Shown here: piece by piece, positions 3,805 to 25,683 of the stretch
How positions within the stretch are numbered: the stretch's first letter is position 1
Layout of the letters: every line of letters starts with the position of its first letter
Assembly (NCBI GenBank): GCA_001799225.1
Contig: MGTA01000167.1
Coordinates: 19,725-52,748, forward strand
From: Deltaproteobacteria bacterium RIFOXYD12_FULL_50_9
GTDB taxonomy: Bacteria; Desulfobacterota; Desulfobulbia; Desulfobulbales; CALZHT01
Direction of reading: 5' to 3'
DNA length: 33,024 nt
Translations under genes and position numbers: made by a program
Notes under the pieces: model-generated
Databases searched by the model: none
What the model was told of the DNA's origin: nothing
The model's input: the letters and a program-made list of their open reading frames with translations, nothing else

Positions 3805-3903
3805 TACTTCCTGCTTGCTAATTGAATGAATTGACGCTATTCTTTCAAGTTTATGAGAATGAATAAGCAAGTGATTTAAAATCACAACAGTGGAGGTAAG
3901 AGT

Positions 3904-4443
3904 ATTAAAGAGAAGAACAAAGCCGTGAAGGGCCGGGAAATTAGGGCACGAGTTGGTAACCAGATCCGCGCGGTTGCCGTGAGACTGATAGACGAAGAAG
4001 GTGGCCAGATCGGTGTTGTGACTGTTCCGGAAGCCTTGGCCAAAGCCGAACAAGCTGGATTGGATTTGGTTGAGATATCTCCCACAGCTGATCCGCCGGT
4101 TTGCCGGATTATGGATTATGGAAAATTCCGGTATGAACAGAGCAAAAAGCTGCAGGATGCCAAGAAAAAACAGACCGTCATAGAGATTAAAGAGATTAAG
4201 CTGCGGCCAAAAACGGAAAAACATGATCTGGAGTTCAAGATCAGAAGCATCAGAAAGTTTTTGGCTCAAAAGAATAAAGTGAAGGTGACCTTGCGTTTTC
4301 GGGGTCGGGAGATCGTTTACGCTGACAGTCTGGGCATCGAAGTGCTGAACAAGATCGGCGAAGCAGTCTTGGATATAGGTGTAATTCTGCAGTCTCCCAA
4401 GGTTGAAGGCCGGCAAATGGCAATGTTTCTTGGACCTAAGTGA
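3904..4443 (+). CDS. infC: Translation initiation factor IF-3, probable AUU start
   Basis: IF-3 core: RVGNQIRAVAVRLIDEEGGQIGVV...CRIMDYGKFRYEQSKK...KEIKLRPKTEKHDLEFK. The frame is open from 3880. ATT at 3904 lies 7 nt after GGAGG (3892-3896). The track start, GTG at 3925, has no Shine-Dalgarno. The start call alone has confidence about 0.6. Confidence 0.9.
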   Translation: MKEKNKAVKGREIRARVGNQIRAVAVRLIDEEGGQIGVVTVPEALAKAEQAGLDLVEISPTADPPVCRIMDYGKFRYEQSKKLQDAKKKQTVIEIKEIKLRPKTEKHDLEFKIRSIRKFLAQKNKVKVTLRFRGREIVYADSLGIEVLNKIGEAVLDIGVILQSPKVEGRQMAMFLGPK

Positions 4444-4514
4444 TAGTGTAAGATGAGTTTTTAAACGATATAGTATTATTTATTTTTTGATCCAAACCGT
4501 ATGGAGAGTGGATT

Positions 4515-4712
4515 ATGCCGAAGATGAAGACCAACAGGGGTGCTGCTAAGCGTTTTAAAATGACCGGCACTGGAAAGATTAAGAGGAGTAAGGCTTTTTC
4601 CAGCCATATTCTCACCAAAAAATCGACCAAAAGAAAACGGAACCTGCGTAAATCCGCTTTGGTTGAGTCAGCAAATTTAAAGAGTGTAAAAAGACTGGTT
4701 CCCTATCTGTAA
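4515..4712 (+). CDS. rpmI: 50S ribosomal protein L35
   Basis: 65 aa, [24 protein letters not shown]..., highly basic. GGAGAG lies 6 nt upstream. It sits in the canonical infC-rpmI-rplT position. Confidence 0.95.
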
Positions 4713-4860
4713 GAGTGTGTGTCTTGCCATTAGATTAGTGTATTAAGTCGTATACGATGATGCCAGGATCAGTAAACATTATTCAGAACGTTCAGCAGAC
4801 GATGAAGAGATTCATAACAGGTTTGCTGCATTGATGATTTGTTAGAGAGGAGATATTGAG

Positions 4861-5205
4861 ATGCCTAGAGTTACGCGTGGTTTTAAAGCCCGTCGAAGAA
4901 GAAACAAGATACTCAACATGGCCAAAGGCTATATAGGCGGCCGTAGTCGTCTTTTTAAGACCGCTGCCGAGGCGGTTGATCGTGCGTTGGTATATGCCTA
5001 TCGTGATCGCCGAACCAAAAAGCGTGATTTTAGAAGGCTTTGGATCGTCCGGATAGCTGCTGCTGCCAAAATGAATGGAACGTCATACAGTAAATTGATA
5101 GGTGGATTGAAGAAAGCTAAAGTTGATCTTGACAGAAAGGTCTTGTCTAATATGGCTATTCTTGATCCGCAGGCTTTTACCGCAATCGTTAAATTAGCCT
5201 CCTGA
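4861..5205 (+). CDS. rplT: 50S ribosomal protein L20
   Basis: 114 aa, [24 protein letters not shown]...[29 protein letters not shown] lies upstream. Confidence 0.95.
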
Positions 5206-5233
5206 ATTCTTCTGCGCCTGTCACTATTCCGCC

Positions 5234-6247
5234 ATGGAAGAAGAATTACTGCGGCTGCAATCAGAGGCGAAAACCGAACTCTCTACTATTATCCGCCCGG
5301 ATGAACTTGAGTCTTTCAGGGTTAAATATTTAGGGAGGAAATGTACTCTTACTATGCTGATGCGGAAACTTGGCGAGGTTTCCGCGCAGGATCGTCCTCG
5401 GCTTGGTAATCTGGCGAACAGCATTAAAAAAGAGATAGAGGCTGATTTCCTTGAAAAGGAGATGGCCTTGACTCAACTGCAGGCCACCGGAAAAGGAGAG
5501 TCCAGAAAAGATTTAACTCTTCCGGGGCGGGTGATTCCTTTTGGACGTCGTCATCCGGTCTCTCAGGTTATGCTTGAGATCTGCCGTATTTTTGAAGGAC
5601 TCGGTTTTGCAGTGGCTGAAGGGTCCGATGTCGAAACAGATTATTATAATTTCGAGGCCTTGAATATCCCCAAGCATCATCCTGCCAGGGATATGCACGA
5701 CACCTTTTATTTTGATGAGAGCGTCTTGCTGAGGACGCATACCTCCCCCATGCAGATCAGGGCCATGGAGAAACAGGAGCCGCCTCTTCGTATTATTGCT
5801 CCCGGCAAGGTGTACCGCTGCGATTCCGATATCACTCATACCCCGATGTTTCATCAAGTTGAAGGATTTCTTGTTGACCGGCATGTCTCATTTGCTGATC
5901 TTAAGGGGGTTCTTTCTATTTTTATTGCCAAGATGTTTGATAGTAATGTTGCTATCCGTTTTCGTCCGAGTTTCTTTCCTTTTACTGAACCTAGTGCTGA
6001 AGTTGATATAGCCTGTGTGATATGTGATGGAAAGGGGTGTCGTGTTTGTAAACAAACTGGCTGGATTGAGATTCTTGGGGCAGGTCTTATTGATCCCGAG
6101 GTGTTTAGAATGGTTGGTTATGACTCCGAGAAGTTCAGTGGGTTTGCCTTTGGCATTGGGGCTGAGAGAATCGCCATGCTTAAATACGGAATCAATGATA
6201 TCCGTCTTTATTACGAAAATGACATGCGTTTTCTTTCGCAGTTCTGA
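5234..6247 (+). CDS. pheS: Phenylalanine--tRNA ligase alpha subunit
   Basis: 337 aa. It has an N-terminal coiled-coil and class II motifs (HPARDMHDTFY, FRPSFFPFTEPSAEVD, GFAFGIGAERIAML). Confidence 0.97.
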   Translation: MEEELLRLQSEAKTELSTIIRPDELESFRVKYLGRKCTLTMLMRKLGEVSAQDRPRLGNLANSIKKEIEADFLEKEMALTQLQATGKGESRKDLTLPGRVIPFGRRHPVSQVMLEICRIFEGLGFAVAEGSDVETDYYNFEALNIPKHHPARDMHDTFYFDESVLLRTHTSPMQIRAMEKQEPPLRIIAPGKVYRCDSDITHTPMFHQVEGFLVDRHVSFADLKGVLSIFIAKMFDSNVAIRFRPSFFPFTEPSAEVDIACVICDGKGCRVCKQTGWIEILGAGLIDPEVFRMVGYDSEKFSGFAFGIGAERIAMLKYGINDIRLYYENDMRFLSQF

Positions 6248-6315
6248 TAGCAGGTTGTTTTTTGCCGTATTATATTTTCGGCATTTTTTTAATGATTTAA
6301 AAAGCGGATTGACTC

Positions 6316-8739
6316 ATGAAATGCACCCTATCCTGGTTACGTAATTATATAGAGTGTGATCTCCCGACTGCCAAGTTGGTGCAAGGTCTGGTCATGGCTG
6401 GGCTTGAGGTTGATTCATGTCAGGAACTTTTTGAATATTTGAATGACAGCGTCAGGATAGTCAGAATTAAATCTGTTCGTCCGCATCCGCAGGCCGATCG
6501 TCTGGTATTATGTGATGTGGATGCCGGAGGCGAGAGAGTTCTCAGGATCGTCTGCGGGGCTCCTAATGCCAGACCTGGCCTGTTGACTGTGCTGGCCTTA
6601 CCGGGCACATCGTTACCGAATGGCGTAATTATCAAACAGAGCAAGATCCGTGGGGAGATTTCCGAGGGCATGCTTTGTTCGGAAAAAGATCTTGGGATTT
6701 CTGAAAATAATGCCGGGATTATAGACCTGCCAGACTCTTATGCGGTTGGCGAGCCTTTAGTTGATGCTCTTGATTTGCATGATACCTTGCTGGAAGTGGA
6801 TATTACTCCCAATCGACCTGATTGTGCCAGTGTTATTGGTATTGCACGGGAGATTGCCGGTTTTGCCGGGAAAAAACTGCGGGTTCCGGTTGCCCAGAAT
6901 CTTCCAGCCCTCACTGGCCAAAATCTGCCATTTTCAGTGGCGGTTGATTCTGCTGCCTGTCCTCGCTATTCCGCACGTCTTCTTAATGATGTAACTATAG
7001 CGCCTTCGCCGTGGTGGCTTAAGAAAATCCTGTTGGCTGTCGGCCTTCGTCCGATCAATAATGTTGTTGATATTACGAATTTCGTGATGCTTGAATTCGG
7101 TCAGCCTCTACATGCTTTTGATTTCGATCGTTTGGCCGGTGCTGGAATTATTGTCCGGCAGGCCCGACCATTAGAGAAGATCAATACCCTTGACGGCGTT
7201 GCACGGCAACTCGATCCGGAGATGCTGGTTATCTGTGATCATGAAAAACCTGTAGCTGTTGCTGGGATCATGGGCGGGTCAAGTTCTGAGGTGACTGCCT
7301 CCACCAAGCGGATTCTGCTTGAAAGCGCCTACTTTGATCCAGTCAGTATTCGTCGCACGGTCCGCAAGCTTAATATGAGTACTGATTCATCATACCGTTT
7401 TGAAAGGGGGGTTGATCCTGAGGGTATTCCAAAGGCCTTGGAGCGGGCGGTTCAGCTAATCGTTGAGTTAACCGGCGCTAAGCTTGTTGATGACGGTATT
7501 GATCTTATTCAAGGATTACCGGAAAAGAAGGTTATAAAGCTTAGGGTGCAGAGAGTCAGTGATCTCCTTGGAATCAATATCAGTGCCGAGGAGATCGAAC
7601 GTTTGCTGTTAGGTATTGAGATTATTGCTAGGCAGATTGATGAGTTGACTTTTGAAGTTGTGCCGCCGACTTTCAGGGTAGATCTTGAGCGCGAAATTGA
7701 TTTGATTGAAGAGATTGCCAGACTCAAGGGATATAATGAGTTGCCAAGCACCCTCCCCGTGACTCCTATGAGTTTTCCGGAGAATTGTCCTGTTCGTTCT
7801 CTTCGGGATAAGATAGCCGCCACCATGGTTGCCTTAGGTTTTTATGAGGCCATCAATTATAGTTTCGTCAGCGATCACAATGTTGATCTATTGGGGCTTG
7901 CTGTTCAAGACAAACGCCGACAGCAATTACGGCTTAAAAATCCGTTGGCTGAAGATCAGAATGTCATGAGGACCACTCTTCTACCGGCTTTGCTTGAAAA
8001 TGTTCGGCGCAACATCAACCATCAGACTTCCGATTTGCAACTTTTTGAGGTTGGCAAGGTGTTCCTCCCGCAGGGCGGAGAACTGCCTGAAGAGGATGAA
8101 CGTCTGACCGTTGTAATGTGTGGTAGACGCTATCCGGGTGCCCCCGTACTTCACTATTCGGCTAATGCCGTGGTCGATATCCATGATATCCGTGGGGTTG
8201 TTGAAACCATTTTGCTCCAACAGGCATGTGCTGGCGTAATATTCGACACCGATAGCGTCGATGAACAGTTGGGCGAAGCTGGCGAGTCAGTCGTATTAAG
8301 AGCTAATGGTCGGATGTTGGGCGGCTATGGACTGGTAGCTCGAAATATTCTTAAGAATTTTGGCATAAAACAGGATGTCTATTTTATAGATTTAAGCATC
8401 TCTTTATTGAGCCTGATTCCTCCCGAACCCAAAACATTTCGTCCATTATCGAGATATCCATCCGTCACATGGGATGTTGCCTTGGTTGTGCCGGAGGCCA
8501 TCAAATGCGGTGAGCTTTTACAGGCTGTGCATGAAGCTAAAGAAGTGTTGTTCGAGAAGGTTGAACTTTTTGATATCTATCAGGGAAATAATATTGATAA
8601 AGGCACTAAAAGTGTAGCATTGTCAATTACTTATCGTTCAGCTGATCATACATTGGAAGATGATGAAGTTGAAATAACACATAAAAAAATAATCAACTTG
8701 CTTATCTCACGGTTTCAGGGCAAGTTGCGAGAGGTGTGA
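6316..8739 (+). CDS. pheT: Phenylalanine--tRNA ligase beta subunit
   Basis: 807 aa with the MKCTLSWLRNYI start. It has an OB-type tRNA-binding domain (VRIKSVRPHPQADRLVLCDVD), B3_4 and B5 regions, and a C-terminal FDX-ACB-like domain. Confidence 0.97.
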   Translation: MKCTLSWLRNYIECDLPTAKLVQGLVMAGLEVDSCQELFEYLNDSVRIVRIKSVRPHPQADRLVLCDVDAGGERVLRIVCGAPNARPGLLTVLALPGTSLPNGVIIKQSKIRGEISEGMLCSEKDLGISENNAGIIDLPDSYAVGEPLVDALDLHDTLLEVDITPNRPDCASVIGIAREIAGFAGKKLRVPVAQNLPALTGQNLPFSVAVDSAACPRYSARLLNDVTIAPSPWWLKKILLAVGLRPINNVVDITNFVMLEFGQPLHAFDFDRLAGAGIIVRQARPLEKINTLDGVARQLDPEMLVICDHEKPVAVAGIMGGSSSEVTASTKRILLESAYFDPVSIRRTVRKLNMSTDSSYRFERGVDPEGIPKALERAVQLIVELTGAKLVDDGIDLIQGLPEKKVIKLRVQRVSDLLGINISAEEIERLLLGIEIIARQIDELTFEVVPPTFRVDLEREIDLIEEIARLKGYNELPSTLPVTPMSFPENCPVRSLRDKIAATMVALGFYEAINYSFVSDHNVDLLGLAVQDKRRQQLRLKNPLAEDQNVMRTTLLPALLENVRRNINHQTSDLQLFEVGKVFLPQGGELPEEDERLTVVMCGRRYPGAPVLHYSANAVVDIHDIRGVVETILLQQACAGVIFDTDSVDEQLGEAGESVVLRANGRMLGGYGLVARNILKNFGIKQDVYFIDLSISLLSLIPPEPKTFRPLSRYPSVTWDVALVVPEAIKCGELLQAVHEAKEVLFEKVELFDIYQGNNIDKGTKSVALSITYRSADHTLEDDEVEITHKKIINLLISRFQGKLREV

Positions 8740-9887: not shown

Positions 9888-11687
9888 GTGATGAATGATC
9901 AAGGGACTATGAAAAGTCGAATTTTGATAATAGATGACGAAGAGAGCTTGCGCTTAACATTCAAGACCTTTTTGAGCAGGGAAGGGTATGGTCCTGTTGA
10001 GGTTGTATCGACTTACGAAGAAGCTATGGCAAAGATAGACAACCAGACCTTCGATTTAATCATCAGTGATATCGTCCTTGAAGGCGCCTCAGGGATTGAT
10101 CTCCTCCGCCATGTCAAGGATTCAAAATTGCATTGTCCTGTGGTAATGGTGACAGGATATCCTAATATTAATTCGGCCTCGGAAGCTGTACGTCTTGGAG
10201 CCTTTGATTATCTCTCCAAGCCTGTCAAAAAGGATGACCTGCTCAGGGTTGCTCGAATGGCTTTGCAACAATATAATCTTTGGCTGGAAATGGAGAAACT
10301 TGCAGAGGAGAAGGAGAGGTTCCGTAATCATCTTGAGGCGATTTTCAGGAGTGTCCGTGATTTGATTATTACGGTAGACACTCAGATGAATATTGTTGAT
10401 ATGAATGACCGAGCAAAAAACCAGTTGTTGGTGATTGAACCGGGAATCAAGGTTGGCGATTCAATTACCAGGATACCAGGCGCATTTGGCAAGATACTTT
10501 TAGATGATGTGGAACAGGTGCTTAGATCAACCAATGATGTAGCTGAACATCAAGTTGAATTCAATTTTCTTGAAGGTGAACTTTCAATCTTTAGAATCAG
10601 TGCTGCGCCGCTTGTAACCAGGAGTGGGAATTTTCAGGGCGTAGTTATTGTTGCTAGAGATGTGAGTCGGTTAGAAGAGTTGGAACAAAAGGGCAAAAGG
10701 TCGCATTTCCACAGGTTGGTAGGCAGTAGTCGGTCTATGCAGGCAGTCTATACGATGATAGAAAATGTTGGCTGTGTTGATACCACAGTACTCATTCTCG
10801 GTGAAAGCGGTACGGGTAAGGAGTTGGTTGCTGAGGCATTGCATGCCGAAAGTGGACGTCGTGACATGCCGCTAGTCAAGGTTGACTGTACTGCCATTCC
10901 TGAAAATCTTCTTGAAAGTGAACTGTTCGGCCATCGAAAGGGTTCATTTACCGGTGCTGATCGTGATCGCAAGGGGCGAATTCTACTGGCTGATGGCGGA
11001 ACTTTGTTTCTTGATGAAATTGGTGATATCTCACCTATCATGCAGCTTAGACTGCTGAGGTTTCTGCAGGAGAGAACTTTCTATCCGGTTGGTCAGGATA
11101 CGCACATTAAAGTAAATGTGCGGGTTATTACAGCCACAAATGCAGATTTGAAACAGAAAGTCGTGGATGGTGAATTCCGAGAAGATCTCTATTTCCGTTT
11201 GAAAGTAATGGATATTCAACTTCCACCTTTACGCGAAAGAGAAGGAGATCTTCCTCTACTCGTCAATAATTTCGTTGAGAAGTTCAGCAAGCGTCTTGAT
11301 AAACAGATTAGCGGACTTTCCGATCAGGCACTGCAGATACTTTCTGAATATCGTTGGCCAGGCAATGTCCGTGAACTTGAACATGTTATTGAACGCGCCA
11401 CAGTTCTTTGTAGTGGCACAATTATTACTACCGACTATCTCTCAGATGAGATATTGCATGCCAATATATCTCCTGGTAACAATGAATCTTCATTTAACGG
11501 TTCTATGAGTGATGATTTTCTGCCTGTCATTGCCAGTGAAGTGGAGGGGGAGAGCGAGCTGGACAGGATTATGCGCACCTTGAAGCTGGTTGACGGCAAT
11601 AAGGCAAAGGCCGCACGACTACTTGGTATTGATCGGAGCACCCTCTATCGTAAACTTCGCCAATATGATATCGATCCAACCATCTAA
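9888..11687 (+). CDS. Sigma-54-dependent response regulator (REC-PAS-AAA+-Fis HTH)
   Basis: Receiver domain: ILIIDDEE...DLIISDIVL...GAFDYLSKPV. A PAS-like middle segment follows. The AAA+ domain has Walker A GESGTGKELVAEALH, ESELFGH, a GAFTGA-type loop reading GSFTGA, and a VRVITATN arginine-finger region. The C-terminal HTH is GNKAKAARLLGIDRSTLYRKLRQY. The start could be GTG 9888, ATG 9891 or ATG 9909. No histidine kinase is adjacent. Confidence 0.92.
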   Translation: MMNDQGTMKSRILIIDDEESLRLTFKTFLSREGYGPVEVVSTYEEAMAKIDNQTFDLIISDIVLEGASGIDLLRHVKDSKLHCPVVMVTGYPNINSASEAVRLGAFDYLSKPVKKDDLLRVARMALQQYNLWLEMEKLAEEKERFRNHLEAIFRSVRDLIITVDTQMNIVDMNDRAKNQLLVIEPGIKVGDSITRIPGAFGKILLDDVEQVLRSTNDVAEHQVEFNFLEGELSIFRISAAPLVTRSGNFQGVVIVARDVSRLEELEQKGKRSHFHRLVGSSRSMQAVYTMIENVGCVDTTVLILGESGTGKELVAEALHAESGRRDMPLVKVDCTAIPENLLESELFGHRKGSFTGADRDRKGRILLADGGTLFLDEIGDISPIMQLRLLRFLQERTFYPVGQDTHIKVNVRVITATNADLKQKVVDGEFREDLYFRLKVMDIQLPPLREREGDLPLLVNNFVEKFSKRLDKQISGLSDQALQILSEYRWPGNVRELEHVIERATVLCSGTIITTDYLSDEILHANISPGNNESSFNGSMSDDFLPVIASEVEGESELDRIMRTLKLVDGNKAKAARLLGIDRSTLYRKLRQYDIDPTI

Positions 11688-17073: not shown

Positions 17074-17943
17074 CTATTTGATCCTGTCGAATCGTATCTG
17101 GGTGATTTGCTCTGATATAAGTCCCATCATGAATATGATGATGGAAGTGGTCAACAGCAGGGCCGACATATTCGAAAAACGGTGGGAAGTTATGAAGGTG
17201 TAAAGATAGTAGAGTATTCCGGTACTGAAGAAGAAAAAACTGATTGGCAGAAAAATCCGGAGAGGGGAGAAAAGTGTAGCGATTTTTGTGATAATCAGAA
17301 AGAAGCGAGGGCCATCCTCCAGCAATTTTATTTTGCTTTTGCCGCCTCTTTTTATTGTTTGAATAGGAACAAACTTTATGCTTCTGCCACTACGAAGATA
17401 AGATATGGTTAAGGTCGATGGGTATGAAAAAGTATTTGGCAGAAGGTAAATATAGTCCAGAACGGTCTCTTTTTTAACAAGACGAAAACCGGAGGTTAGA
17501 TCGTCAATTTTGAATTTTGTAACGTAGCCGGCCAGCCAGTTATACAATGTATTAGCAATATCACGATGAACTGATGTCTCGGATTGCCTGGTCCTGGCGC
17601 CTATTACCATATCGAATTTATCTTTGTGCTCAAGCAGCCTGGCGATGTCTGCCGGGTTATGCTGACCATCGGCATCCATCATGATGACCCAATCGCCGGA
17701 AGCGCAGCGCAGACCGGTTTTAATGGCCGCGCCATTTCCAATATTGTACGGGTGTGGCCAGACATTGGCGCCGGCGGCCATGGCTATTTGAATAGTGTTA
17801 TCAGTTGAGGCGTCATCGACCACAAGAATCTCGAAGTCAGGGTAAAGGGCTTTGAGATTTTTAATAGTTCCACCGATGTTTTCCGCCTCGTTAAAAGCTG
17901 GCAGGAGGATGGTGATTTTTTCGAAGTTCTCTTGAGTTGTCAT
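17074..17943 (-). CDS. GT2 polyprenyl-phosphate glycosyltransferase (GtrB/ArnC/DPM1-like)
   Basis: 289 aa. The N-terminus is ILLPAFNEAENI...ILVVDDASTDNT, with the DxD segment MMDADGQHNP. It has two C-terminal hydrophobic helices (FFLIITKIATLFSPLRIFLPISFFFF and LLLTTSIIIFMMGLI). Confidence 0.88.
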   Translation of the reverse strand: MTTQENFEKITILLPAFNEAENIGGTIKNLKALYPDFEILVVDDASTDNTIQIAMAAGANVWPHPYNIGNGAAIKTGLRCASGDWVIMMDADGQHNPADIARLLEHKDKFDMVIGARTRQSETSVHRDIANTLYNWLAGYVTKFKIDDLTSGFRLVKKETVLDYIYLLPNTFSYPSTLTISYLRSGRSIKFVPIQTIKRGGKSKIKLLEDGPRFFLIITKIATLFSPLRIFLPISFFFFSTGILYYLYTFITSHRFSNMSALLLTTSIIIFMMGLISEQITQIRFDRIK

Positions 17944-18016
17944 GATTATGTTCCAAACGAGTTGATTGGCAAATTAGTTAGTGCTGTGACAGTTAGCTTT
18001 ATGTGTGGAATGTGTG

Positions 18017-20131
18017 TCAGTTCTTGTTTTTATCCCTCAGTTCACAAAGATCGGCATAAAGCTGTTTCATTTGTTGGTCGTCCGGTACAGTATCTAAATA
18101 TTTTTTACATATTTTTATGGCGATGGGTAGAAGTTCAGGAGAGTCGGTTTTTAAGCAATAATCAACATATATTTGTGCTATCATTTTAATTGCATCGTGA
18201 TTGTTACGATCTTGATCAAGAATAATCGAACACTCCTTTGCCGCATTATATAAGTAGCCATTTTGATAAAAATTTTCTGCCTTTTTTAGCCTTTCTTCCG
18301 TACTTTCTGTTTGTTCAGGTAAAGTTTTTGGGAGTTTTTTGTGTTGGCGTAAATCATATATGGTAATGACTCGCTTAAATTTTGGGAATAGCCGACTGTA
18401 TATTACCGGCCCTGGTTGCGGGAGAACAATACCACCAAAGGCCAGATCAAAAAGTAGTGGGCGGGCGATTGCAAGTTCAGTACTGTCGGCAAGCAACAGA
18501 TCGCCTTCATGGTTATCGATTTTTTGTCTTAACTCCTCGTAAGTTTTCGGTAGACTGATCGCTTTTCCCTTTAGGTAGTAAGCCATATATGGCTTATAAC
18601 TTATGACCTTTACACCTGGGAAAGCCAATTGCCGATCCTGCAAATATTTAGCGACTTCAAGTTGGCCGGCGGAAAATATTAAAGAAGGTTTGGCTGAAAG
18701 CAGATTTATTTTTTGAATCGTAGGCCATTCCTGAGAAAATATTATGCCAACCATCATCAATGGAACAATAATTGGACTTGCGATTGTTTTAGATAGTGTT
18801 TTTGACTTGATTTTGCCATCAAATATTTTTTTAGCCCAATCCCAACTCTGGCAAATTCCTTGTCCGCAAAGTATTAAGGCGGGAAGAAGAATAGGAAACA
18901 TATAGCGATGGTCTACCATATACGCCGACACTAACGCATAGAGGATAATAATAGATATAATCCAGCTAAGCAGATATAATTCTTTCCAATAATCCCTCCA
19001 AGAACCGATATGAATTTGATAGACAACAAAGATTAGGGCCAGTGAGAGCCAACCAAGTGAGGAGTAGCCGACTCCTTCGAGAAAAGCTTTAAAGTATGAC
19101 CAGCCGTTTGTTGCCAGTTTACTGCTGATAAATGAAAGCTTCTCTAATGGACTCTGGCTTTGAATTGTTGTTACGTTCGTCTCTGCGCCCGGGAGTTTGA
19201 AACGGTCGTATTGGTCACCGCCTTCATGAAAAATAGCAGTTACAATTTTGGCATTATTCGCTTGGTAAGTTAACCCCCACTCGCCGGTGCGGAGTTTGAT
19301 GGCCATAAGGTGGGGCATAACAGTAAGCATAAAAGTACAGAGCATTAATGCCACCAGCATAATGGAGCGTCGGTAGGTGGAATTTTCTCTCAACAGAACA
19401 AAAGTGCTCCATATAAATACTAAGCAAATGGCGACAATACCTATTTCACGGGTGAGGTAGCTGAGCGCGGCACATATTCCTGTCAAAATAAAGAGGAATG
19501 GTCTTTTTGTATTTATGGCCCATAGTCCTGCTGCTATGGTACTGAACAAAAGAAACGTAAATGTTGATTCGGTAAGCGCTGGAGATGCCCATTGGAGGGC
19601 AAACGGGTGAAAAGAAAAGAGGGCAATAGCAATCAGGCCTGAAGTCTGTGAATAGAGATGACGTCCGACCAGATAGAGGGGAATAAAGGTAAGCATACTC
19701 ATCGAGAGCGAGACCCATATCCCGATTCGTTCTATCTCAAACGGTAAAAAAGAAAATGCTGCTATTAACATCGGGTAGAATGGTGGAAGGCGTCGCGAGG
19801 TTAAAAAGCCGGCATCCAGATCATAGTCACTTTGGAAATATGTTGAAGTCTGTATCTCTTTGGCCAGACTGAAATACAGTGTTGAATCTGGAAAGGTAAT
19901 TAGAGGGTCCCATCTGGTAGTCGAGACCCGAAGAAAGAAGCCGATCGCTAAAATAGCAAGAAATAATAGGATTGGCAGGTTTTTTGAATTATGAATCTGT
20001 TCAAACATATGACTCGTCTTTGTGTATAGAGGACACTGTTGATCGTTAGAAACCTGACTTGCAGGGTAAAAACAGGTTGATAAAACAAGAAAAATGGCTA
20101 ACCACTCGAAAGAAAAACGAAAGATGATCAA
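18017..20131 (-). CDS. GT-C glycosyltransferase, PMT_2/ArnT-like, with a C-terminal TPR-like tail
   Basis: About 470 aa of polytopic membrane domain, with first-loop FPDSTLYFSLAKEI and RRLPPFYPMLIAAF typical of family 39/83-like enzymes. A soluble domain and a TPR-like end follow (AENFYQNGYLYNAAKECSIIL...). The start is ambiguous: TTG at 20131 (track) or ATG at 20008 (MFEQIHNSKN...). Confidence 0.78.
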   Translation of the reverse strand: MIIFRFSFEWLAIFLVLSTCFYPASQVSNDQQCPLYTKTSHMFEQIHNSKNLPILLFLAILAIGFFLRVSTTRWDPLITFPDSTLYFSLAKEIQTSTYFQSDYDLDAGFLTSRRLPPFYPMLIAAFSFLPFEIERIGIWVSLSMSMLTFIPLYLVGRHLYSQTSGLIAIALFSFHPFALQWASPALTESTFTFLLFSTIAAGLWAINTKRPFLFILTGICAALSYLTREIGIVAICLVFIWSTFVLLRENSTYRRSIMLVALMLCTFMLTVMPHLMAIKLRTGEWGLTYQANNAKIVTAIFHEGGDQYDRFKLPGAETNVTTIQSQSPLEKLSFISSKLATNGWSYFKAFLEGVGYSSLGWLSLALIFVVYQIHIGSWRDYWKELYLLSWIISIIILYALVSAYMVDHRYMFPILLPALILCGQGICQSWDWAKKIFDGKIKSKTLSKTIASPIIVPLMMVGIIFSQEWPTIQKINLLSAKPSLIFSAGQLEVAKYLQDRQLAFPGVKVISYKPYMAYYLKGKAISLPKTYEELRQKIDNHEGDLLLADSTELAIARPLLFDLAFGGIVLPQPGPVIYSRLFPKFKRVITIYDLRQHKKLPKTLPEQTESTEERLKKAENFYQNGYLYNAAKECSIILDQDRNNHDAIKMIAQIYVDYCLKTDSPELLPIAIKICKKYLDTVPDDQQMKQLYADLCELRDKNKN

Positions 20132-20173
20132 ATCTAGAAGGAATCTCTTTGGAAGTCAAAGCAAAAATCATGA

Positions 20174-22300
20174 TTACCGCCAGGTGTCTCCTCCAACTTC
20201 CCATATCTGATAGTTTGGCGTGCTTTGCAACACAGGTTTAAAATATTCAGGGGGCATTGGAGTTTTTAGCCAGAATAGATTGTTAAAGAGACGCTGCCCG
20301 GAGTCTCTGCTTAAAAGTAGTGCCATATTTTGCTCAGAAAAGATATCGAACTCATAACTGCCGGCGGAATTTTCAAGTTGAACAGGGTGAGGGGGATAAT
20401 CATACCGAGAAATTTTTTCGGTGGTTCTAAACAGTGCCGAGGTGATGGGAGTTGGCGCTCCTGAGAGATTGACAACTCCGGTTTGGAGGTCGGCATGCAT
20501 GGTTCCACTCTTGTTTGTTACATTTAAACCTTTAATAATAATATTTTTGAACAGCTTGCCTGGCAGTGGCGAGACTCCGGTTTGCTTATTGATATCCCAG
20601 GTACCTAAGAAGACGATCCAGTGATTTACCTGCATTAGTCCCCAATCCAGAAAAAGATATACAGGCCTGGAACGGGGCGGAAAAAGAAAGGTAAGCCACC
20701 CCCCAGCCGGCATGTTTGCCTGAGACAAGTTAAACTTTTTAAGAATTATGGAAGCTTCCTGCGGACCGGCAGCCATGATTCTTTTCAGGAGTTCGTAGCC
20801 GGTGGCGCGATCTTTGCCAACGGACTGATAAAATAGATTTATTCCCGGCGTGCCATGTCTGACATAAAATTGAATGAAGTTAGCGGCCAGACGCGGATTT
20901 TCAGTGGCTAATGGCATTGAGTTGTAAACAGACTGTTCGCCGCTATGTGTTTGTCCGTCGCAAGTTGTTCCTCGATTTCCCCAGTAACTTAGAGGATAGC
21001 CATTGTCACAAAAAGTCCAGACAATCGCACCAGCAGGAGTGACCCGTTGCAGTTGCGACATGCCGGCGATGCTCGCCCCTGGGAAGGGCATGGCGAATGC
21101 AGCCTCCCCCTTGTACGAGGTCCAGGAAGCATAGATAATCAGGCCGGGAATAATAAGGTACTTTGTTTTGCGGAGGCTGACGGGTCTGCATAGTTCGACC
21201 ATAAAGAAACCAAAACCAAGTGCAATCACTGGTGTGATAAAGATCATAAACCTATCTGCAGCAAAAGCCAGCAGGGCCAGGAGAATTGGCATGATGAGAA
21301 ATAAGCTCTGCTTTGAGTGACGTGCGAAAAGCAAAATTAAACCTGTCAGGCTTATTCCGAAGAGAAGCCAGCTGCCGGTGGATCTGGCAACGAACAGAGG
21401 TAGCGATAGGCCCGCCTGTTCGGTAATCACTTTCCCCATGGGCGGGAAATCATCTTTGCCGGGATGGATTATATAGTGATAGTAATTTTGAAATTTATGA
21501 AATACCGAATTTGCTGGATTGAACTCTTGCCATGTCACGGCTATTAAGGAGATGGCGACAACAAACAGGATAAATTTTTTTGCTTCAGGTCCAGGCGGAC
21601 GATAGAAATAGACCAGGGCCGTGGTGAATGGCACCAGGAAAATAGCCAATACCACATACGGGGCCTGATCCCACCACCATAAAAACAATATTAGAGTTGC
21701 TACCGCAGAGATCAGATAGTAATAACGTTTCCGGCCGGTTTCAGTTGCAAATTTAAGTAAGAAGAAGACAATTGCCATTAAAAGGGTGGGATTCAGGCAG
21801 TCGGTATCATATTGACCAAAAGAACTCCTGGCAAGGTGGGCATTAGAGATAAGACTAAAAGCCGCAGCCGTAAGTCCCATGATAGTTCCACCCCATAATT
21901 TGCCAAGACAATACGAAGGAATAGCAAGCATTACACCTAATACGGCTGGAAGAACAACCGCAACCCAGTTTAACGAAAAGGAACTTGCCCTGGAGATAGC
22001 AGCGGTCATCACAGAGAGCAAAGGCGGTGGAAAAGGTCGAGGTGGGTTGGCAGGTACGGAACGGAGTTCGTCAACGGTATTATAGCGATTGTTAACGAGA
22101 TCCTGAGCAAGACGCAGGTAATAATAGCCATCGCCGGTAGCAATTAAAGGTTCTTCGTTATGAAATGCCTCTGAGGCGTTGGTGCGCCAATCCTTTAGGT
22201 CATCCAGGCGTATTACCAGACCCCAAAGAATAATTATACCAAGGGCTAAAGCTTTTAGGAGTCTTTGATGTGCAGGATTGTCAGTCAAGGGCATTGCCAA
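20174..22300 (-). CDS. STT3/PglB-family oligosaccharyltransferase homologue with a non-canonical WWDYG region
   Basis: 708 aa. It aligns by eye to Campylobacter lari PglB. ATGDGYYYLRLAQD matches TNDGYAFAEGARD. RSSFGQYDTDCLN matches RTMSGYYDTDMLV. VITEQ matches the TIxE motif. IVWTFCDNGYPLSYWGNRGTTCDGQTH matches [26 protein letters not shown]. The start is TTG 22300 or ATG 22294. Confidence 0.85.
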   Translation of the reverse strand: MAMPLTDNPAHQRLLKALALGIIILWGLVIRLDDLKDWRTNASEAFHNEEPLIATGDGYYYLRLAQDLVNNRYNTVDELRSVPANPPRPFPPPLLSVMTAAISRASSFSLNWVAVVLPAVLGVMLAIPSYCLGKLWGGTIMGLTAAAFSLISNAHLARSSFGQYDTDCLNPTLLMAIVFFLLKFATETGRKRYYYLISAVATLILFLWWWDQAPYVVLAIFLVPFTTALVYFYRPPGPEAKKFILFVVAISLIAVTWQEFNPANSVFHKFQNYYHYIIHPGKDDFPPMGKVITEQAGLSLPLFVARSTGSWLLFGISLTGLILLFARHSKQSLFLIMPILLALLAFAADRFMIFITPVIALGFGFFMVELCRPVSLRKTKYLIIPGLIIYASWTSYKGEAAFAMPFPGASIAGMSQLQRVTPAGAIVWTFCDNGYPLSYWGNRGTTCDGQTHSGEQSVYNSMPLATENPRLAANFIQFYVRHGTPGINLFYQSVGKDRATGYELLKRIMAAGPQEASIILKKFNLSQANMPAGGWLTFLFPPRSRPVYLFLDWGLMQVNHWIVFLGTWDINKQTGVSPLPGKLFKNIIIKGLNVTNKSGTMHADLQTGVVNLSGAPTPITSALFRTTEKISRYDYPPHPVQLENSAGSYEFDIFSEQNMALLLSRDSGQRLFNNLFWLKTPMPPEYFKPVLQSTPNYQIWEVGGDTWR

Positions 22301-22311
22301 AGTTTAGAAAC

Positions 22312-24714
22312 CTATTGTGGGGCATTTATTGTAGCAGGTTTAGTTTTCTCCAGTTCAAATTTATTGTCCGGTTGGATCTTGGCAGTCTTAATAAAATTTT
22401 CATATTCGGCCCAGTCCGGATGACCAGGGTAGTTGGCCAGAAGCCTGCTGAACATGATTGCTGCTTGTTTATTGTTATTTTGTTCCTGGTAACAAAGGCC
22501 GGCCAGTTCAATTAGCGGGAAAAAGTCCAGCGCCGAATTTAAATAGTGTTTTGTCAGTTTTAACGCTTCATCGGTTTGGTTTGTTTTAAGTCGCCAGCGG
22601 GCTAAATAATAACCAGCGACAGGGTCTTGCGGCTCAAGGCGGGCAGCCTCTTTTAGAAAATATTCAATAGACCCTTCTAAAGGGTGGTACGATTTTTCTA
22701 TAAAACCGGCCAGGAAAAGATACGACTTGAACCGGAAGTTGTGTATTGACACTGGCCTGTTTGCAAGATTTACCGCGTTAATCGCCCTTTTGTTTTTTTC
22801 GAGCGCATTTTCTAAATTCCTCTTAATCTCTAACGTTGCTATATCATTCGGATCCTTTTCCAGGGCCATTTTCAGGTATTGTTCAGTATTTCGGTAATCT
22901 CGTTTGGCAAAAAGCGTTCCGGCAATTTTACGATGAACGGCAACCGGTTTATTCTCTAACTCAAGTTGCAGGCGTCCCTTTTCACTGGTCATGGCCTCCA
23001 GCAATAAGGCTTCCATAGCTCCTAAGGCAATTTTTGCGTCAGTGGTGCCCTTAACTAAAGCAGCATATGAAAACGCTTCAAAGGACGCCTGCAAGTTGCC
23101 GAGTTTCCAGTAAGCAGTTCCCAGATTTAACATTATCCTTTGAAAGCCATCCCAATTGATCCCCTTGGGTCTCTCTTTTATATATTTTTCTGCCCGGTCA
23201 GCGGCCTCCTGGAACTTCCCCTGTTCCCTCAAGATGTTTACAATGTTGTTGGCTGCCTTCAGATACTCTTCATAGTTGTTCTTTCCCAGAGCTATTGTTT
23301 GCTCCAGAGTGGCCAGACCCTCTTCATATCGACCTGATATTGCCAATATAACGCCTAAATTGTTCAGCACTCTTGGTTTATTTGGGGATTTTTTGGCACA
23401 ATCCTTCATAAGAGTGTATTCATCCTGCCAAACGGTATTGCGGATAGATGTGAAAGTAGTCAATACGCAAACAATAATTACAGTTCCCAAAAATATTATC
23501 TGCTTTAATTCTATGTCATTTTTTGCTGAAATAAATCGTATACCTATGTCGACCAGCGCGATCATAACAATAAAAAAGCCCAGGGAGGGCAGGTAAAGAC
23601 GATGCTCAAAAACAAGTTCCAGGCCGATAATGGATGATTCCAAAATCAGATTCAGGAAAAAAAACAAAATGCCAAATGATATTAGTTTGTTATGTCGACT
23701 AGCTTTGAAAGCGATCCATAAAAGAGAAGCGATAAACAGCAGTGCGAGAAGGGTGGTCGGGGGTGCCAATAATGAATGAGAAATAGTAAAGTCATGCTCA
23801 AGGTTGAAACGACCTGGCAGCGGAAATATAAGCAGAGAGAGGTAAAAAACGATTACCCGTAGTTCTGTCAACAATCTTTCTGAAATAGTGAAATGCCTGT
23901 TTGAGAAAGTTTCGTAAATCGTCGAGAGATTCGCATAAAGCAAGGGCAAAAGCAATAGAATAACAATGGCCAGACCAAGAAGTTGCTGCCATCTTATTTT
24001 GGCCATGATATTTTTGCCAAGCTCGGGTGAAATAAAAAGCATCTCAACCAATAATAGCGCTAAGGGCAGAGTAAAGGAGTTTTCCTTGGATAAGAAGGCG
24101 CACAGCGCAAAGATGATAAAGCCAACCCAGGCAATATAACGTTGCGGTTTTGAGATATTGATCCGGCCCCAAATATAACAAGTAAGGGCGGCAAAATAGA
24201 ACAGGGCAACCAATGACGCCATTCTTTGCACCAGGTAGGTAACGGCATTTGTCTGCACCGGGTGCACGGCCCACAAGGCGGTAACGAACAGGCTGAAGTA
24301 TTCCGGCGCAATAAACTTCAGAGACCTCTTCGCTATTAAAGTTGAACATAAGGCGCGCATTAAGAGATAAACAGCAGTAGTCGACAGAATATGAATAAGG
24401 ATGTTGGTTAAGTGAAATTGCTTAACACTCCCCTTGCCTATCATGTGATCGATTGCAAAGGTGAGGAGGGGAATTAAACGTCCCAGGCCGAAACGTGTTG
24501 AGGAGAGCTTTTGCAGGGACTCAAGTGAAAAATTATCAATATAAACTTTAGGCTCGTCAATGAAAGTTGCTTTATCATCAAGCACTAGAGGTGAATAAAG
24601 AGTATTGCTGTAACTGAGGCAAATAAAGCAGAGAACAAAAAGGAAAAGTACATGCGGAGATAAAGAAGTAATTCGAACCTGCCAGGAATGGTTTTTATCC
24701 TTTTCTGTCATCAT
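22312..24714 (-). CDS. Polytopic membrane protein with C-terminal TPR repeats, TMTC-like GT-C glycosyltransferase
   Basis: 800 aa. After TM1 comes NTLYSPLVLDDKATFIDEP, resembling the F-x-F/L-DD first-loop motif of TMTC/DUF1736-type GT-Cs. About 10-12 hydrophobic segments run to roughly residue 430, followed by about 350 aa of TPR-like repeats. The family assignment (about 0.6) is less certain than the architecture. Confidence 0.78.
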   Translation of the reverse strand: MMTEKDKNHSWQVRITSLSPHVLFLFVLCFICLSYSNTLYSPLVLDDKATFIDEPKVYIDNFSLESLQKLSSTRFGLGRLIPLLTFAIDHMIGKGSVKQFHLTNILIHILSTTAVYLLMRALCSTLIAKRSLKFIAPEYFSLFVTALWAVHPVQTNAVTYLVQRMASLVALFYFAALTCYIWGRINISKPQRYIAWVGFIIFALCAFLSKENSFTLPLALLLVEMLFISPELGKNIMAKIRWQQLLGLAIVILLLLPLLYANLSTIYETFSNRHFTISERLLTELRVIVFYLSLLIFPLPGRFNLEHDFTISHSLLAPPTTLLALLFIASLLWIAFKASRHNKLISFGILFFFLNLILESSIIGLELVFEHRLYLPSLGFFIVMIALVDIGIRFISAKNDIELKQIIFLGTVIIVCVLTTFTSIRNTVWQDEYTLMKDCAKKSPNKPRVLNNLGVILAISGRYEEGLATLEQTIALGKNNYEEYLKAANNIVNILREQGKFQEAADRAEKYIKERPKGINWDGFQRIMLNLGTAYWKLGNLQASFEAFSYAALVKGTTDAKIALGAMEALLLEAMTSEKGRLQLELENKPVAVHRKIAGTLFAKRDYRNTEQYLKMALEKDPNDIATLEIKRNLENALEKNKRAINAVNLANRPVSIHNFRFKSYLFLAGFIEKSYHPLEGSIEYFLKEAARLEPQDPVAGYYLARWRLKTNQTDEALKLTKHYLNSALDFFPLIELAGLCYQEQNNNKQAAIMFSRLLANYPGHPDWAEYENFIKTAKIQPDNKFELEKTKPATINAPQ

Positions 24715-24729
24715 CTTGGATTTATTGTT

Positions 24730-24746
24730 ACCTGTTTTTAACAGGT
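24730..24746 (-). other. Small hairpin 15 nt upstream of the TMTC-like start codon
   Basis: ACCTGTT-TTT-AACAGGT forms a 7-bp stem. No Shine-Dalgarno is visible between it and the ATG at 24714. Confidence 0.4.
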
Positions 24747-24784
24747 TATTTTTTCAAGGAGTCATGGGCCGTATAAATACCAGT

Positions 24785-24815
24785 AAAAAACCCGACTCGT
24801 AAAGTCGGGTTTTTT
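24785..24815 (-). terminator. Intrinsic (bidirectional-looking) terminator after the pilin gene
   Basis: A6-CCCGACT-CGTAA-AGTCGGG-T6. On the minus strand the hairpin is followed by TTTTTT, 29 nt after the pilin TAA. Confidence 0.85.
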
Positions 24816-24843
24816 GAACTGGCTGCTGTTTGAATCAAGGGGG

Positions 24844-25302
24844 TTAATTTTCGCCGGACAACCCCAGTTTTTCTGCAAGGTTTCCACCTAACGACCACCT
24901 GGCTATTTTGCCGTCATTACCTGATGTTTGGGCAACTGCTGTCATTCTATAATTGTTTAATTTTTCCAATTTTTCACCAACTACACTGGTTATTGAAAAC
25001 GCAAACCCATTTACTCGCATAGATACACTATCCATATATGTCATGTCAGCCTCATCATCCATGAGACCAACGGTGGCAGCAGCCTGAGGAAATCTTTGAT
25101 GGGTGGAATAGTAGAGACCGAGGTTGGTTTGAAGCGAGTGCATGCCAGGAAAGACCAGGGAGGTAACCCTCGCTTTCTGGATGTAGTTCATGTAGGCCGG
25201 GATGGCAACTGCAGCCAGGATACCAATGATCGCTACGACGATCATCAACTCAATAAGGGTAAAGCCTTTTTCAGAATCTTGGGGTCGCAGCATCTTTAGC
25301 AT
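24844..25302 (-). CDS. pilA: Type IV prepilin (major pilin-like)
   Basis: ATG at 25302 lies 7 nt after GGAGGA. The leader is [13 protein letters not shown], followed by the class III signal [24 protein letters not shown] (G-1, F+1, E+5). The precursor is 152 aa and the mature protein 139 aa. The track ORF start at 25401 is rejected. Confidence 0.92.
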
Positions 25303-25361
25303 AGTGGTTCCTCCTGAGGGTTTTAAGTTTTTAATGCTTTTCAACTTCGATTTTTTAGTAT

Positions 25362-25377
25362 TGCAGATATCGGGCCA
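25362..25377 (-). promoter_or_regulatory. Sigma-54 (-24/-12) promoter candidate for the pilin gene
   Basis: The minus strand reads TGGCCCG-ATAT-CTGCA against the consensus TGGCACG-N4-TTGCA. The GG and GC spacing is exact, with 2 mismatches. The -12 element lies about 60 nt upstream of the ATG. Confidence 0.55.
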
Positions 25378-25496
25378 TAATTCAAAGAAAATATTGTGCA
25401 ACGCATATTAACATCTAACTAGTTTGATTCATTAGTAAAAAAATGTATAGGCCTGACACGATAGGTTCCAGTTCAACTGTTTTTATTGGGGGCGCT

Positions 25497-25551
25497 TGAC
25501 AATAATTGTCAGTTTGTAGAGCGCGAGTTGTGACGCTTTTTGTCAGTTTGT
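25497..25551 (-). promoter_or_regulatory. Repeat cluster, candidate enhancer (UAS) for the sigma-54 promoter
   Basis: A 12-nt direct repeat TTGTCAGTTTGT occurs at 25506-25517 and 25540-25551. A perfect inverted repeat TGACAAT-A-ATTGTCA lies at 25497-25511. A related GTTGTGAC lies between them. The cluster is 120-175 nt upstream of the -24 element. Confidence 0.4.
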
Positions 25552-25609: not shown

Positions 25610-25683
25610 TGGCTGGGGGACAGGGATTCGAACCCCGACAGGCAGAGTCAGAGTCTGCAGTCCTACCGTTAGACGATCCCCCA
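25610..25683 (-). tRNA. tRNA-Gln (anticodon CTG)
   Basis: The minus strand reads TGGGGGA-TC-GTCT...GCAGA-CTCTGAC-TCTGC...CGGGG-TTCGAAT-CCCTG-TCCCCCA-G-CCA, 74 nt. Confidence 0.94.

Follow-up and report, generated by a model that had tools for sequence, protein, structure and literature searches.

The question raised by this locus is whether the enzyme genes that follow a type IV pilin gene form a unit with it. A stretch of 33,024 nucleotides from contig MGTA01000167.1 of Deltaproteobacteria bacterium RIFOXYD12_FULL_50_9, an uncultured bacterium of the sulfate-reducer type (we call this whole analysed stretch the window) carries on its minus strand a sigma54-type element, a prepilin gene, a hairpin, and then four genes on the same strand, which are separated by only 11, 42, and 73 nt according to the ends of their open reading frames (ORFs). 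The four genes encode a membrane protein of 800 amino acids (aa) with tetratricopeptide repeats (TPR), a 708-aa protein of the STT3 family, a 704-aa protein of the PMT_2 family, and a 289-aa GT2 glycosyltransferase. Based on the analyses below, we think that this is probably a type IV pilin locus with its own dedicated periplasmic glycosylation module, though a considerable share of doubt is left. An earlier note, written from the DNA letters, had described the promoter, the 152-codon minus-strand prepilin gene, the terminator, and the tight spacing of the four genes, and all of these are borne out by the element match, the N_methyl domain of the prepilin (9e-10), the hairpin energy, and the ORF ends (Table 1). 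It had also placed the three large proteins in three different families of GT-C glycosyltransferases, and family searches, motifs, and predicted fold agree with this. Actually, profile hidden Markov models assign STT3, PMT_2, and Glycos_transf_2 above their cutoffs, while the N-terminal domain of the 800-aa protein is assigned by motifs and fold instead.

The same note had regarded the link with the pilin as a matter of position only. This can no longer be said, since the linkage is kept across rearranged loci. We have surveyed 80 metagenome loci with genes related to that of the 800-aa protein (called TMTC-like below, after the eukaryotic TMTC1-4), in which 611 kb were examined. For the 55 non-tandem TMTC-like genes with enough flanking sequence, a prepilin gene is found directly 5' on the same strand, 38–352 nt away, in 17 cases, and for the closest relatives with flank this is so in seven of seven. 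Pilin-like ORFs are rare in these loci, amounting to only 27 in the whole 611 kb. The closest relatives of the window STT3 protein (47–53% identity) come from the loci L081, L082, L084, and L086. Besides its STT3 gene, each of these loci has an orthologous pilin (cut off by the contig end in L082), a single TMTC-like gene or two of them, and a GT2 that is closely orthologous to that of the window, in differing orders and orientations. Overall, the conserved set consists of the pilin, the TMTC-like gene, and the GT2, with or without STT3, and the pilin link is real for most of the module. The note had suggested looking for co-occurrence of STT3 homologues with a pilin, the other GT-C genes, and the GT2; in the closest relatives this is seen for the pilin, the TMTC-like gene, and the GT2, but not for the PMT_2 gene, which is not conserved.

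The signals around the pilin gene recur as well. The window contains a single match to TGGCNC-N5-YTGCW, the one in front of the pilin, and because one such match arises window-wide in 25 of 100 shuffles, the element is weak taken alone. However, when pilin genes standing before TMTC-like genes elsewhere are considered, 16 of 22 have the same element on their 5' side, and a structured intergenic region with a T-run follows the pilin in 16 of 22 comparable pilin/GT-C pairs. Therefore the layout of promoter, pilin, hairpin, and GT-C gene is itself conserved.

What kind of enzyme is the first one after the pilin? The 800-aa protein has a polytopic N-terminal membrane domain (residues ~1–430) followed by a TPR domain (~430–780, matched by Pfam TPR families), and it belongs to a bacterial family of great size, for which a search gives at least 999 matches. 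Residues 1–445 have no Pfam match at E ≤ 10, DUF1736 included, and so the TMTC-like GT-C nature of this domain has to be shown via motifs and predicted fold. A profile search against the sequences of solved structures matches only TPR proteins. As to the motifs, the residues of D46-D47, K210-E-N-S-F-T215, and E370-H-R-L-Y374 either never vary or are kept in at least 90% of 45 homologues. They correspond to the motifs M1 (DD), M4 (KE(T/Q)xxT), and M7 (ERxxY, here with an extra His) of human TMTC1-4, which have been tied to catalysis, metal binding, and dolichyl-phosphate binding (PMC7801869). As to the fold, two AlphaFold models reach mean local confidence (pLDDT) values of 90.3 and 90.6, the latter for the N-terminal domain, whose predicted template modelling score (pTM) is 0.91. 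A fold search with the full-length model was swamped by TPR proteins and has been rerun with the N-terminal domain alone; the top 10 solved structures are then all GT-C enzymes (Pmt4, ArnT, STT3), with Pmt1/2 within the top 13. These structural matches are modest, with E values of 5e-3 to 0.17, probabilities of 0.95–1.0, and template modelling (TM) scores of ~0.3–0.4. Judged by its motifs and modelled fold, the protein is a GT-C glycosyltransferase with a TPR tail, so the earlier description as a TMTC-like membrane/TPR protein holds in substance, without the DUF1736 match.

The architecture of this protein has a published counterpart. In Pseudomonas aeruginosa, the pilin arabinosyltransferase TfpW has 11 transmembrane helices, a DDX motif, and a C-terminal periplasmic TPR domain, is encoded immediately 3' of pilA, and is needed for pilin glycosylation (bioRxiv 10.1101/2020.04.19.049825). 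When compared by this published description, the 800-aa enzyme likewise has its N-terminus in the cytoplasm, ~11 transmembrane helices, a DDX motif located in periplasmic loop 1, and a large periplasmic TPR domain at the C-terminus. As in the pilA-tfpW loci of group IV strains (Pa5196/PA7), a GT-C gene lies immediately 3' of the major pilin gene, the locus stands beside a tRNA gene, and the sugar donor would be linked to polyprenyl monophosphate, as we deduce for the window. On the other hand, the donor of TfpW is decaprenyl/polyprenyl-P-D-arabinofuranose, which comes from an unlinked DprE1/E2-type cluster, whereas the window encodes a GT2 of the GtrB/DPM1 type. DprE1/E2-type arabinose genes are absent from the 33-kb window, which is weak evidence since they are unlinked in P. 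aeruginosa too. The window also differs in lacking a tfpX-like gene and in having two extra GT-C genes (STT3 and PMT_2). Overall, the part made up of pilA and a TfpW-like GT-C gene is of an already known kind, and the earlier note, which had counted the first gene after the pilin as part of a combination without known precedent, needs to be corrected on this point. Because of its TfpW architecture and gene position, together with the motifs of the TMTC O-mannosyltransferases, the 800-aa enzyme is most likely the one that would glycosylate Ser/Thr of the pilin, by analogy with these enzymes, and its TPR domain probably holds the pilin.

The likeness to eukaryotic TMTC1-4 (GT-C/PMT clan) goes as far as the 11-helix domain, the luminal or periplasmic TPR domain, and the positions of the motifs in loop 1 (DD), loop 3 (KE(T/Q)xxT), and loop 5 (ERxxY). 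The nearest solved folds are Pmt4, ArnT, and Pmt1/2, and the Joint Genome Institute (JGI) labels some homologues "protein O-mannosyl-transferase". The bacterial protein differs from the TMTCs in having no DUF1736 match and only loosely recognisable SHKSYRP and DW motifs, and its presumed acceptor is a pilin while TMTCs act on cadherins. Besides, the TMTC-like genes often stand in tandem arrays of 2–4 paralogues (L099, L112, L117, L142, L147, and others), and some arrays have one pilin gene before them and a GT2 gene after them. In L064, genes for an MBOAT protein and an AlgX-like (SGNH) protein come after the second TMTC-like gene (L064:18654-21206, plus strand), which hints at O-acetylation of the same glycan or polymer.

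The second enzyme, of 708 aa, belongs to the STT3 family. Both PF02516 STT3 (1.7e-23) and PF21436 STT3-PglB_core (8.4e-8) are above cutoff, and the protein matches the PglB structures 5ogl, 6gxc, and 3rce at ~2e-20. In the alignment with 5ogl, its D57, D165, D167, E294, and R350 correspond to D56, D154, D156, E319, and R375 of C. lari PglB, and these five catalytic residues are invariant in 36 homologues. On the other hand, the WWDYG motif of PglB, which binds the +2 Ser/Thr of the N-X-S/T sequon, is aligned by FCDNG (residues 429–433). The closest relatives have WCDNG at this position, and wider relatives WWDHG or other variants. In addition, the PglB model of NCBIfam (NF050801) scores 113.5 bits against a cutoff of 1300. 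It follows that the assignment to the STT3 family stands, while the epithet "PglB-like" in the earlier note is overstated in view of FCDNG and a pilin that is free of sequons.

The WWD feature is related to the presence of pilin genes. A prepilin gene is found within 6 kb of none of the 55 WWD-intact STT3 genes, while it is found near 9 of the 22 non-WWD genes (Fisher p = 3e-6, with phylogeny ignored), or near 10 of the 22 if the cut-off pilin of L082 is counted. In a second survey, which covers 78 genomic loci with STT3-family genes, more distant STT3 genes are found in a pilin locus in five loci from four groups (Table 1). We have also clustered the neighbours of WWD-intact STT3 genes in search of a conserved acceptor gene, and have obtained only GT2, GT4/GT9-like, and housekeeping genes. 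Two further "pilins" picked up by a regular expression, in L015 and L069, have been excluded, as the matches are internal and far from the N-terminus. The commonest STT3 arrangement in the survey is an adjoining GT2, with 47 loci without pilin. As for the distant pilin loci, the short Geobacter-type pilins of L067, L045, and L079 end in ...YPN. L067 has on one strand an STT3 gene (WWSYG), an ABC transporter, a 139-aa gene, and the short pilin, and on the other strand a histidine kinase, a sigma54 response regulator, a second STT3 gene (SWGHG), and a GspH-like minor pilin.

Which sugar donor would serve these enzymes? The 289-aa GT2 is matched by PF00535 Glycos_transf_2 (1.2e-29). Among solved structures, those nearest to it are ArnC, GtrB sll0501, and Dol-P-Man synthase, and two C-terminal hydrophobic segments can be read in its sequence. 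By these relationships it is a polyprenyl-phosphate sugar synthase, and the GtrB/ArnC/DPM1 type named in the earlier note is confirmed by Pfam, NCBIfam, and the solved relatives alike. The best NCBIfam matches (AglJ, PpgS, PgfS, and ArnC) are all under their cutoffs, e.g., AglJ with 127.7 against 325, and allow no assignment of the sugar. GT2 orthologues with 68–73% identity adjoin TMTC-like genes in L085–L088, and others with 55–69% identity adjoin STT3 genes in many loci. Since orthologues of one GT2 lie beside either kind of gene, both types of GT-C enzyme appear to draw on a single kind of lipid-linked monosaccharide, and family membership of the GT2 suggests a monophosphate-linked sugar. 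The shared GT2, together with the absence of genes for assembling a glycan on undecaprenyl diphosphate (Und-PP), favours for the STT3 enzyme a logic like that of the Gtr and Arn systems over that of PglB. A precedent is the use of monophosphate-linked donors by archaeal STT3 enzymes (PMC4476749). For the window we consider it most likely that the STT3 enzyme uses a monophosphate-linked donor shared with the 800-aa enzyme on a non-sequon site, or that it extends the glycan.

The third enzyme behaves differently. The 704-aa protein matches Pfam PMT_2 over residues 116–276 with 34.0 bits (cutoff 26.1, E 4.3e-8), while the Pfam search has found neither TPR nor any other domain in its C-terminal 230 residues. 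Hence the PMT_2/ArnT-like GT-C part of the earlier description is kept, but the TPR-like tail is not detected. Against the sequences of solved structures the protein has no match at E ≤ 10. Its residues 72–240 match STT3-like N-termini at ~1e-8 in a small database, and D82 (in FPDSTLYF) aligns with D57 of the STT3 protein in a pairwise alignment that is itself not significant. An iterated profile of the PMT_2 N-terminal domain drifted into STT3 through the shared GT-C similarity and has been discarded for neighbourhood counts. Only one real homologue exists among 5.8 billion proteins, with 33% identity and in an unrelated gene context. This near-orphan state means that the combination of three GT-C enzymes is specific to a lineage, and the PMT_2 enzyme probably adds a lineage-specific decoration. 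The ORF starts at TTG, which gives a hydrophobic N-terminal extension of 41 residues; the alternative start Met42 (MFEQIHNSK...) would give a more typical GT-C N-terminus and a gap of 165 nt, not 42. In L081, a gene for a 513-aa membrane protein with a weak PMT_2 match (E 0.0028, below cutoff) lies directly 5' of the STT3 gene (L081:3106-4647, plus strand). It is not orthologous to the 704-aa protein, and may represent a rapidly diverging third GT-C slot.

If the pilin is the acceptor, where would the sugar be attached? The prepilin has a 13-residue leader ending in Gly and a mature part of 139 aa without Cys, and the total length of 152 aa is also given by the public gene call. The window pilin contains no N-X-S/T sequon. 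Its orthologues (L081, L082, L084, and L086–L088) share VFPGxHxxETN, DADTTYF, and W.L.GNLA..LGL, and form a distinct pilin family. Within it, the Thr-rich DADTT segment is conserved and might be where an O-linked glycan is attached.

Taken together, these results suggest how the module might work. The pilin would be transcribed from the sigma54-type promoter, and the hairpin behind it, probably an attenuator, would let some transcripts through to the four accessory genes. On the cytoplasmic face, the GT2 would, as is typical of its family, charge undecaprenyl phosphate (Und-P) with one sugar residue taken from a nucleotide sugar, and a flippase encoded elsewhere would move the lipid-linked sugar to the periplasmic face. 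There the GT-C enzymes would transfer the sugar to the pilin before pilus assembly. In this process the 800-aa TfpW/TMTC-like enzyme would glycosylate the pilin while its TPR domain grips it, and the WWD-less STT3 enzyme and the near-orphan PMT_2 enzyme would use a donor of this kind for additional or alternative modifications. Pilin glycosylation changes the chemistry of the pilus surface. By analogy, such a change is the likely benefit, which could for example protect the cell from pilus-specific phages. For Pseudomonas, protection against such phages by pilin glycosylation is reported (bioRxiv 10.1101/150227).

A bolder generalisation can be put forward only tentatively. It may be that WWD-less bacterial STT3 enzymes, together with an Und-P sugar synthase, have been recruited to pilin loci for a sequon-independent pilin glycosylation (O-linked or non-canonical Asn) from a monophosphate-linked monosaccharide. 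The window would then be the fullest form, with TMTC-, STT3-, and PMT_2-like GT-C enzymes sharing one donor on one pilin. To our knowledge, neither sequon-independent activity nor a monophosphate-monosaccharide donor has been described for bacterial STT3 homologues.

Several observations weigh against a dedicated pilin module and should be named together. Glycosylation of the pilin, or of any other protein here, is a reading of sequence, predicted structure, and gene neighbourhood. A strong terminator splits the pilin gene from the enzyme genes. No pilus assembly gene, flippase, or nucleotide-sugar gene has been found among the proteins of the 33-kb window, and the lack of the latter two tells against the proposed pathway. 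No TfpW-named model of NCBIfam or Pfam matches the window proteins, and the likeness to TfpW is one of position and architecture. The 704-aa gene is not kept along with the rest of the module, as an orthologue occurs in none of the fetched loci. Among about nine orthologous pilins, four have a sequon, always at the same place (YATN-x-S/T), and such relatives may have an Asn-linked glycosylation. The statistics on WWD and pilin ignore phylogeny, though at least five separate lineages contribute to them. Finally, the pair of STT3 and GT2 is common without a nearby pilin (55 loci with intact WWD), and its primary substrate may differ. The earlier note had seen a wide occurrence of the module without pilin linkage, combined with an unmodified pilin mass, as speaking against its own proposal, and the first of these is partly what we find: the STT3 and GT2 pair is indeed widespread without pilin, but 9 of the 22 non-WWD STT3 genes do lie near a prepilin gene.

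This last point leads to an alternative in which the system is mixed. That is, only the TMTC/TfpW-like enzyme, perhaps with the GT2, would serve the pilin, while STT3 and GT2 would form a general periplasmic system for other proteins or envelope glycans that in this lineage adjoins the pilin through an accident of genome history, and PMT_2 would be an unrelated ArnT-type envelope modifier. We regard this as rather unlikely on the whole, but it would explain why STT3 and GT2 are adjacent in 47 loci, mostly without pilin, why most pairs of TMTC-like gene and pilin have no STT3 (present in only 1 of the 80 metagenome loci), and why the PMT_2 protein is an orphan with its lone homologue in an unrelated context; the synteny of thrS-infC-pheS near STT3 in other Desulfobacterota would fit an old chromosomal position as well. 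It is at odds with three facts, namely that the STT3 genes of pilin loci come from at least five lineages with none of them WWD-intact (and none of the 55 WWD-intact genes near a pilin), that in the nearest relatives STT3, the pilin, and the TMTC-like gene have stayed together even though the loci are rearranged, and that the four genes follow each other on one strand at 11–73 nt. A canonical N-glycosylation of the PglB type, where STT3 moves a preassembled oligosaccharide from Und-PP (made by genes elsewhere) to N-X-S/T of many periplasmic proteins, can appeal to the STT3 and STT3-PglB_core domains, the match to PglB at 2e-20, the conserved catalytic Asp, Glu, and Arg, and the sequon in some orthologous pilins. 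Against this, the WWDYG position is occupied by FCDNG in the window and by WCDNG in its closest relatives, a sequon is missing from the window pilin, and the window has no phosphoglycosyltransferase, no Wzx flippase, and no further genes for glycan assembly. Its consistent genomic partner is a polyprenyl-monophosphate sugar synthase, and the NCBIfam PglB model reaches 113 bits where 1300 would be needed. Such a system is therefore quite improbable. Still less probable is that the 800-aa protein helps to assemble or stabilise pili in the manner of PilF/PilW/Tgl and has no glycosyltransferase activity, and that the downstream enzymes modify lipopolysaccharide or exopolysaccharide. In NCBIfam the TPR region weakly matches PilW, Tgl, and PrsT, and JGI gives some homologues the label "Tfp pilus assembly protein PilF". 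Both could be read in this way, but the matches are far under the family cutoffs and confined to the TPR repeats, while the polytopic N-terminal 430 residues have GT-C enzymes as all their best structural matches and the GT-C catalytic motifs are invariant family-wide.

How does a dedicated pilin module compare with the other known systems? With PglB, AglB, and STT3, the 708-aa protein shares the STT3 and core domains, the catalytic residues, and a TIxE-like motif in loop 5. Archaeal AglB modifies pilins and archaellins and uses monophosphate-linked donors. The window differs from these systems in its FCDNG, its sequon-free pilin, its lack of a pgl-type cluster, and its partner, a polyprenyl-P monosaccharide synthase. 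The division of labour resembles GtrA-GtrB-GtrC, ArnC-ArnE/F-ArnT, and CsbB-GtcA-YfhO, where a membrane-anchored GT-A/GT2 makes the Und-P-sugar that is used by one or more GT-C enzymes at the outer membrane face. Their acceptors, however, are O-antigen, lipid A, and teichoic acids and not a pilin, and the window has no flippase gene (of the GtrA, SMR, or MATE type) and combines one synthase with three GT-C families including STT3. The Wzy_C-type enzymes TfpO/PilO and PglL are alike in being products of pilA-adjacent accessory genes that act on the pilin periplasmically. As enzymes, however, they are of an unrelated family that uses Und-PP-linked O-antigen units, and no Wzy_C domain has been found in the window. 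In the literature that we searched, with incomplete coverage, there is no description of a WWD-less STT3 in such a module, of its recurrence with pilin loci and a polyprenyl-phosphate monosaccharide synthase, or of three GT-C families coupled to one synthase.

These results indicate that the TfpW-type pair, pilA with a TPR-bearing GT-C enzyme, is not confined to Pseudomonas but is common among sediment bacteria, uncultured Desulfobacterota included. The locus also points to STT3 enzymes which have the catalytic core, have no WWD, and are always accompanied by a polyprenyl-phosphate monosaccharide synthase. If these WWD-less STT3 enzymes do glycosylate proteins, the acceptor and donor range of the oligosaccharyltransferase family would be wider, with a possible use in glycoengineering. 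Since two of the species with related STT3 genes in Geobacter-type short-pilin loci, Desulfogranum marinum DSM 2058 and Desulfopila aestuarii DSM 18488, are in culture, the idea is open to laboratory work.

Table 1 Features of the pilin locus in the window, and pilin loci with distant STT3 genes found in the survey (MAG, metagenome-assembled genome; aa, amino acids).
Feature	Position	Strand	Basis or remark
GT2 polyprenyl-phosphate sugar synthase (GtrB/ArnC/DPM1/AglJ type), 289 aa, by family	17074-17943	-	Pfam Glycos_transf_2
PMT_2-family GT-C, 704 aa	18017-20131	-	Pfam PMT_2
STT3-family GT-C, 708 aa	20174-22300	-	Pfam STT3 and STT3-PglB_core
TMTC/TfpW-like GT-C, 800 aa	22312-24714	-	motifs, predicted fold, TPR families
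Intrinsic-terminator-like hairpin with T-run	24785-24815	-	14 pairs, GC-rich, -26.7 kcal/mol, z = -5.9
Type IV prepilin gene, 152 codons	24844-25302	-	Pfam N_methyl 9e-10; AGGAGG ribosome-binding site
Sigma54-type -24/-12 promoter element TGGCCCGATATCTGCA (TGGCCC-N5-CTGCA)	25362-25377	-	putative function; ~60 nt 5' of the pilin ATG
tRNA-Gln(CTG) gene	25610-25683	-	flanks the pilin promoter region; upstream boundary of the module
Distant STT3 gene in pilin locus (L056)			Ectothiorhodospiraceae MAG
Distant STT3 gene in pilin locus (L064)			Desulfurivibrionaceae MAG
STT3 in Geobacter-type short-pilin locus (L067)			cultured Desulfogranum marinum DSM 2058; PilS/PilR-like regulators
STT3 in Geobacter-type short-pilin locus (L045)			cultured Desulfopila aestuarii DSM 18488
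STT3 in Geobacter-type short-pilin locus (L079)			Desulfobacteraceae MAG
Geobacter-type truncated pilin	L067:5541-5810	-	59-residue mature pilin
Geobacter-type truncated pilin	L045:14934-15164	-	59-residue mature pilin
Geobacter-type truncated pilin	L079:10518-10721	+	59-residue mature pilin
Geobacter-type truncated pilin	L079:16337-16540	-	59-residue mature pilin

The module is surrounded by housekeeping genes, with Memo/AmmeMemoRadiSam B and CysS on one side and Nramp, MgtE, a DEAD helicase, and thrS-infC-pheST on the other, and there is no further ORF between 17074 and 25401. Over the module region, the window sequence is identical to the ENA metagenome contig ERZ4902911 k141_234714, and the nearest named relatives of the window proteins are Desulfobulbales-type bacteria. 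The GC content is 0.38–0.44 in the module, with the minimum of 0.38 over the PMT_2 gene, and 0.47–0.49 in the flanks, and the module abuts tRNA-Gln(CTG). The low GC content and the tRNA gene are compatible with acquisition as an island, or could reflect the composition of membrane-protein genes.

The thrS-infC-pheS region of the window (1882-8739) is within ~11 kb of the STT3 gene. The distance is only a few kb between an STT3-like gene and thrS, infC, rplT, and pheS in about 10 further loci of Desulfobacterota among L003–L080 (e.g., L026, L027, L032, and L041), and a conserved protein of ~958 aa, GlnE-like by the look of its sequence, adjoins STT3 in 23 loci. This synteny and the 958-aa neighbour suggest that the STT3 and GT2 pair sits at an old syntenic position of the chromosome.

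Upstream of the pilin, there is a perfect palindrome TGACAATTATTGTCA at 25497-25511, ~125 nt 5' of the sigma54-type element, with a further AAACTGACAA copy nearby. An enhancer-binding protein like PilR could bind at TGACAATTATTGTCA. At 9888-11687 on the plus strand, ~13 kb from the sigma54-type pilin promoter, there is a gene for a response regulator, whose domains are PAS, sigma54-activator, and HTH_8.

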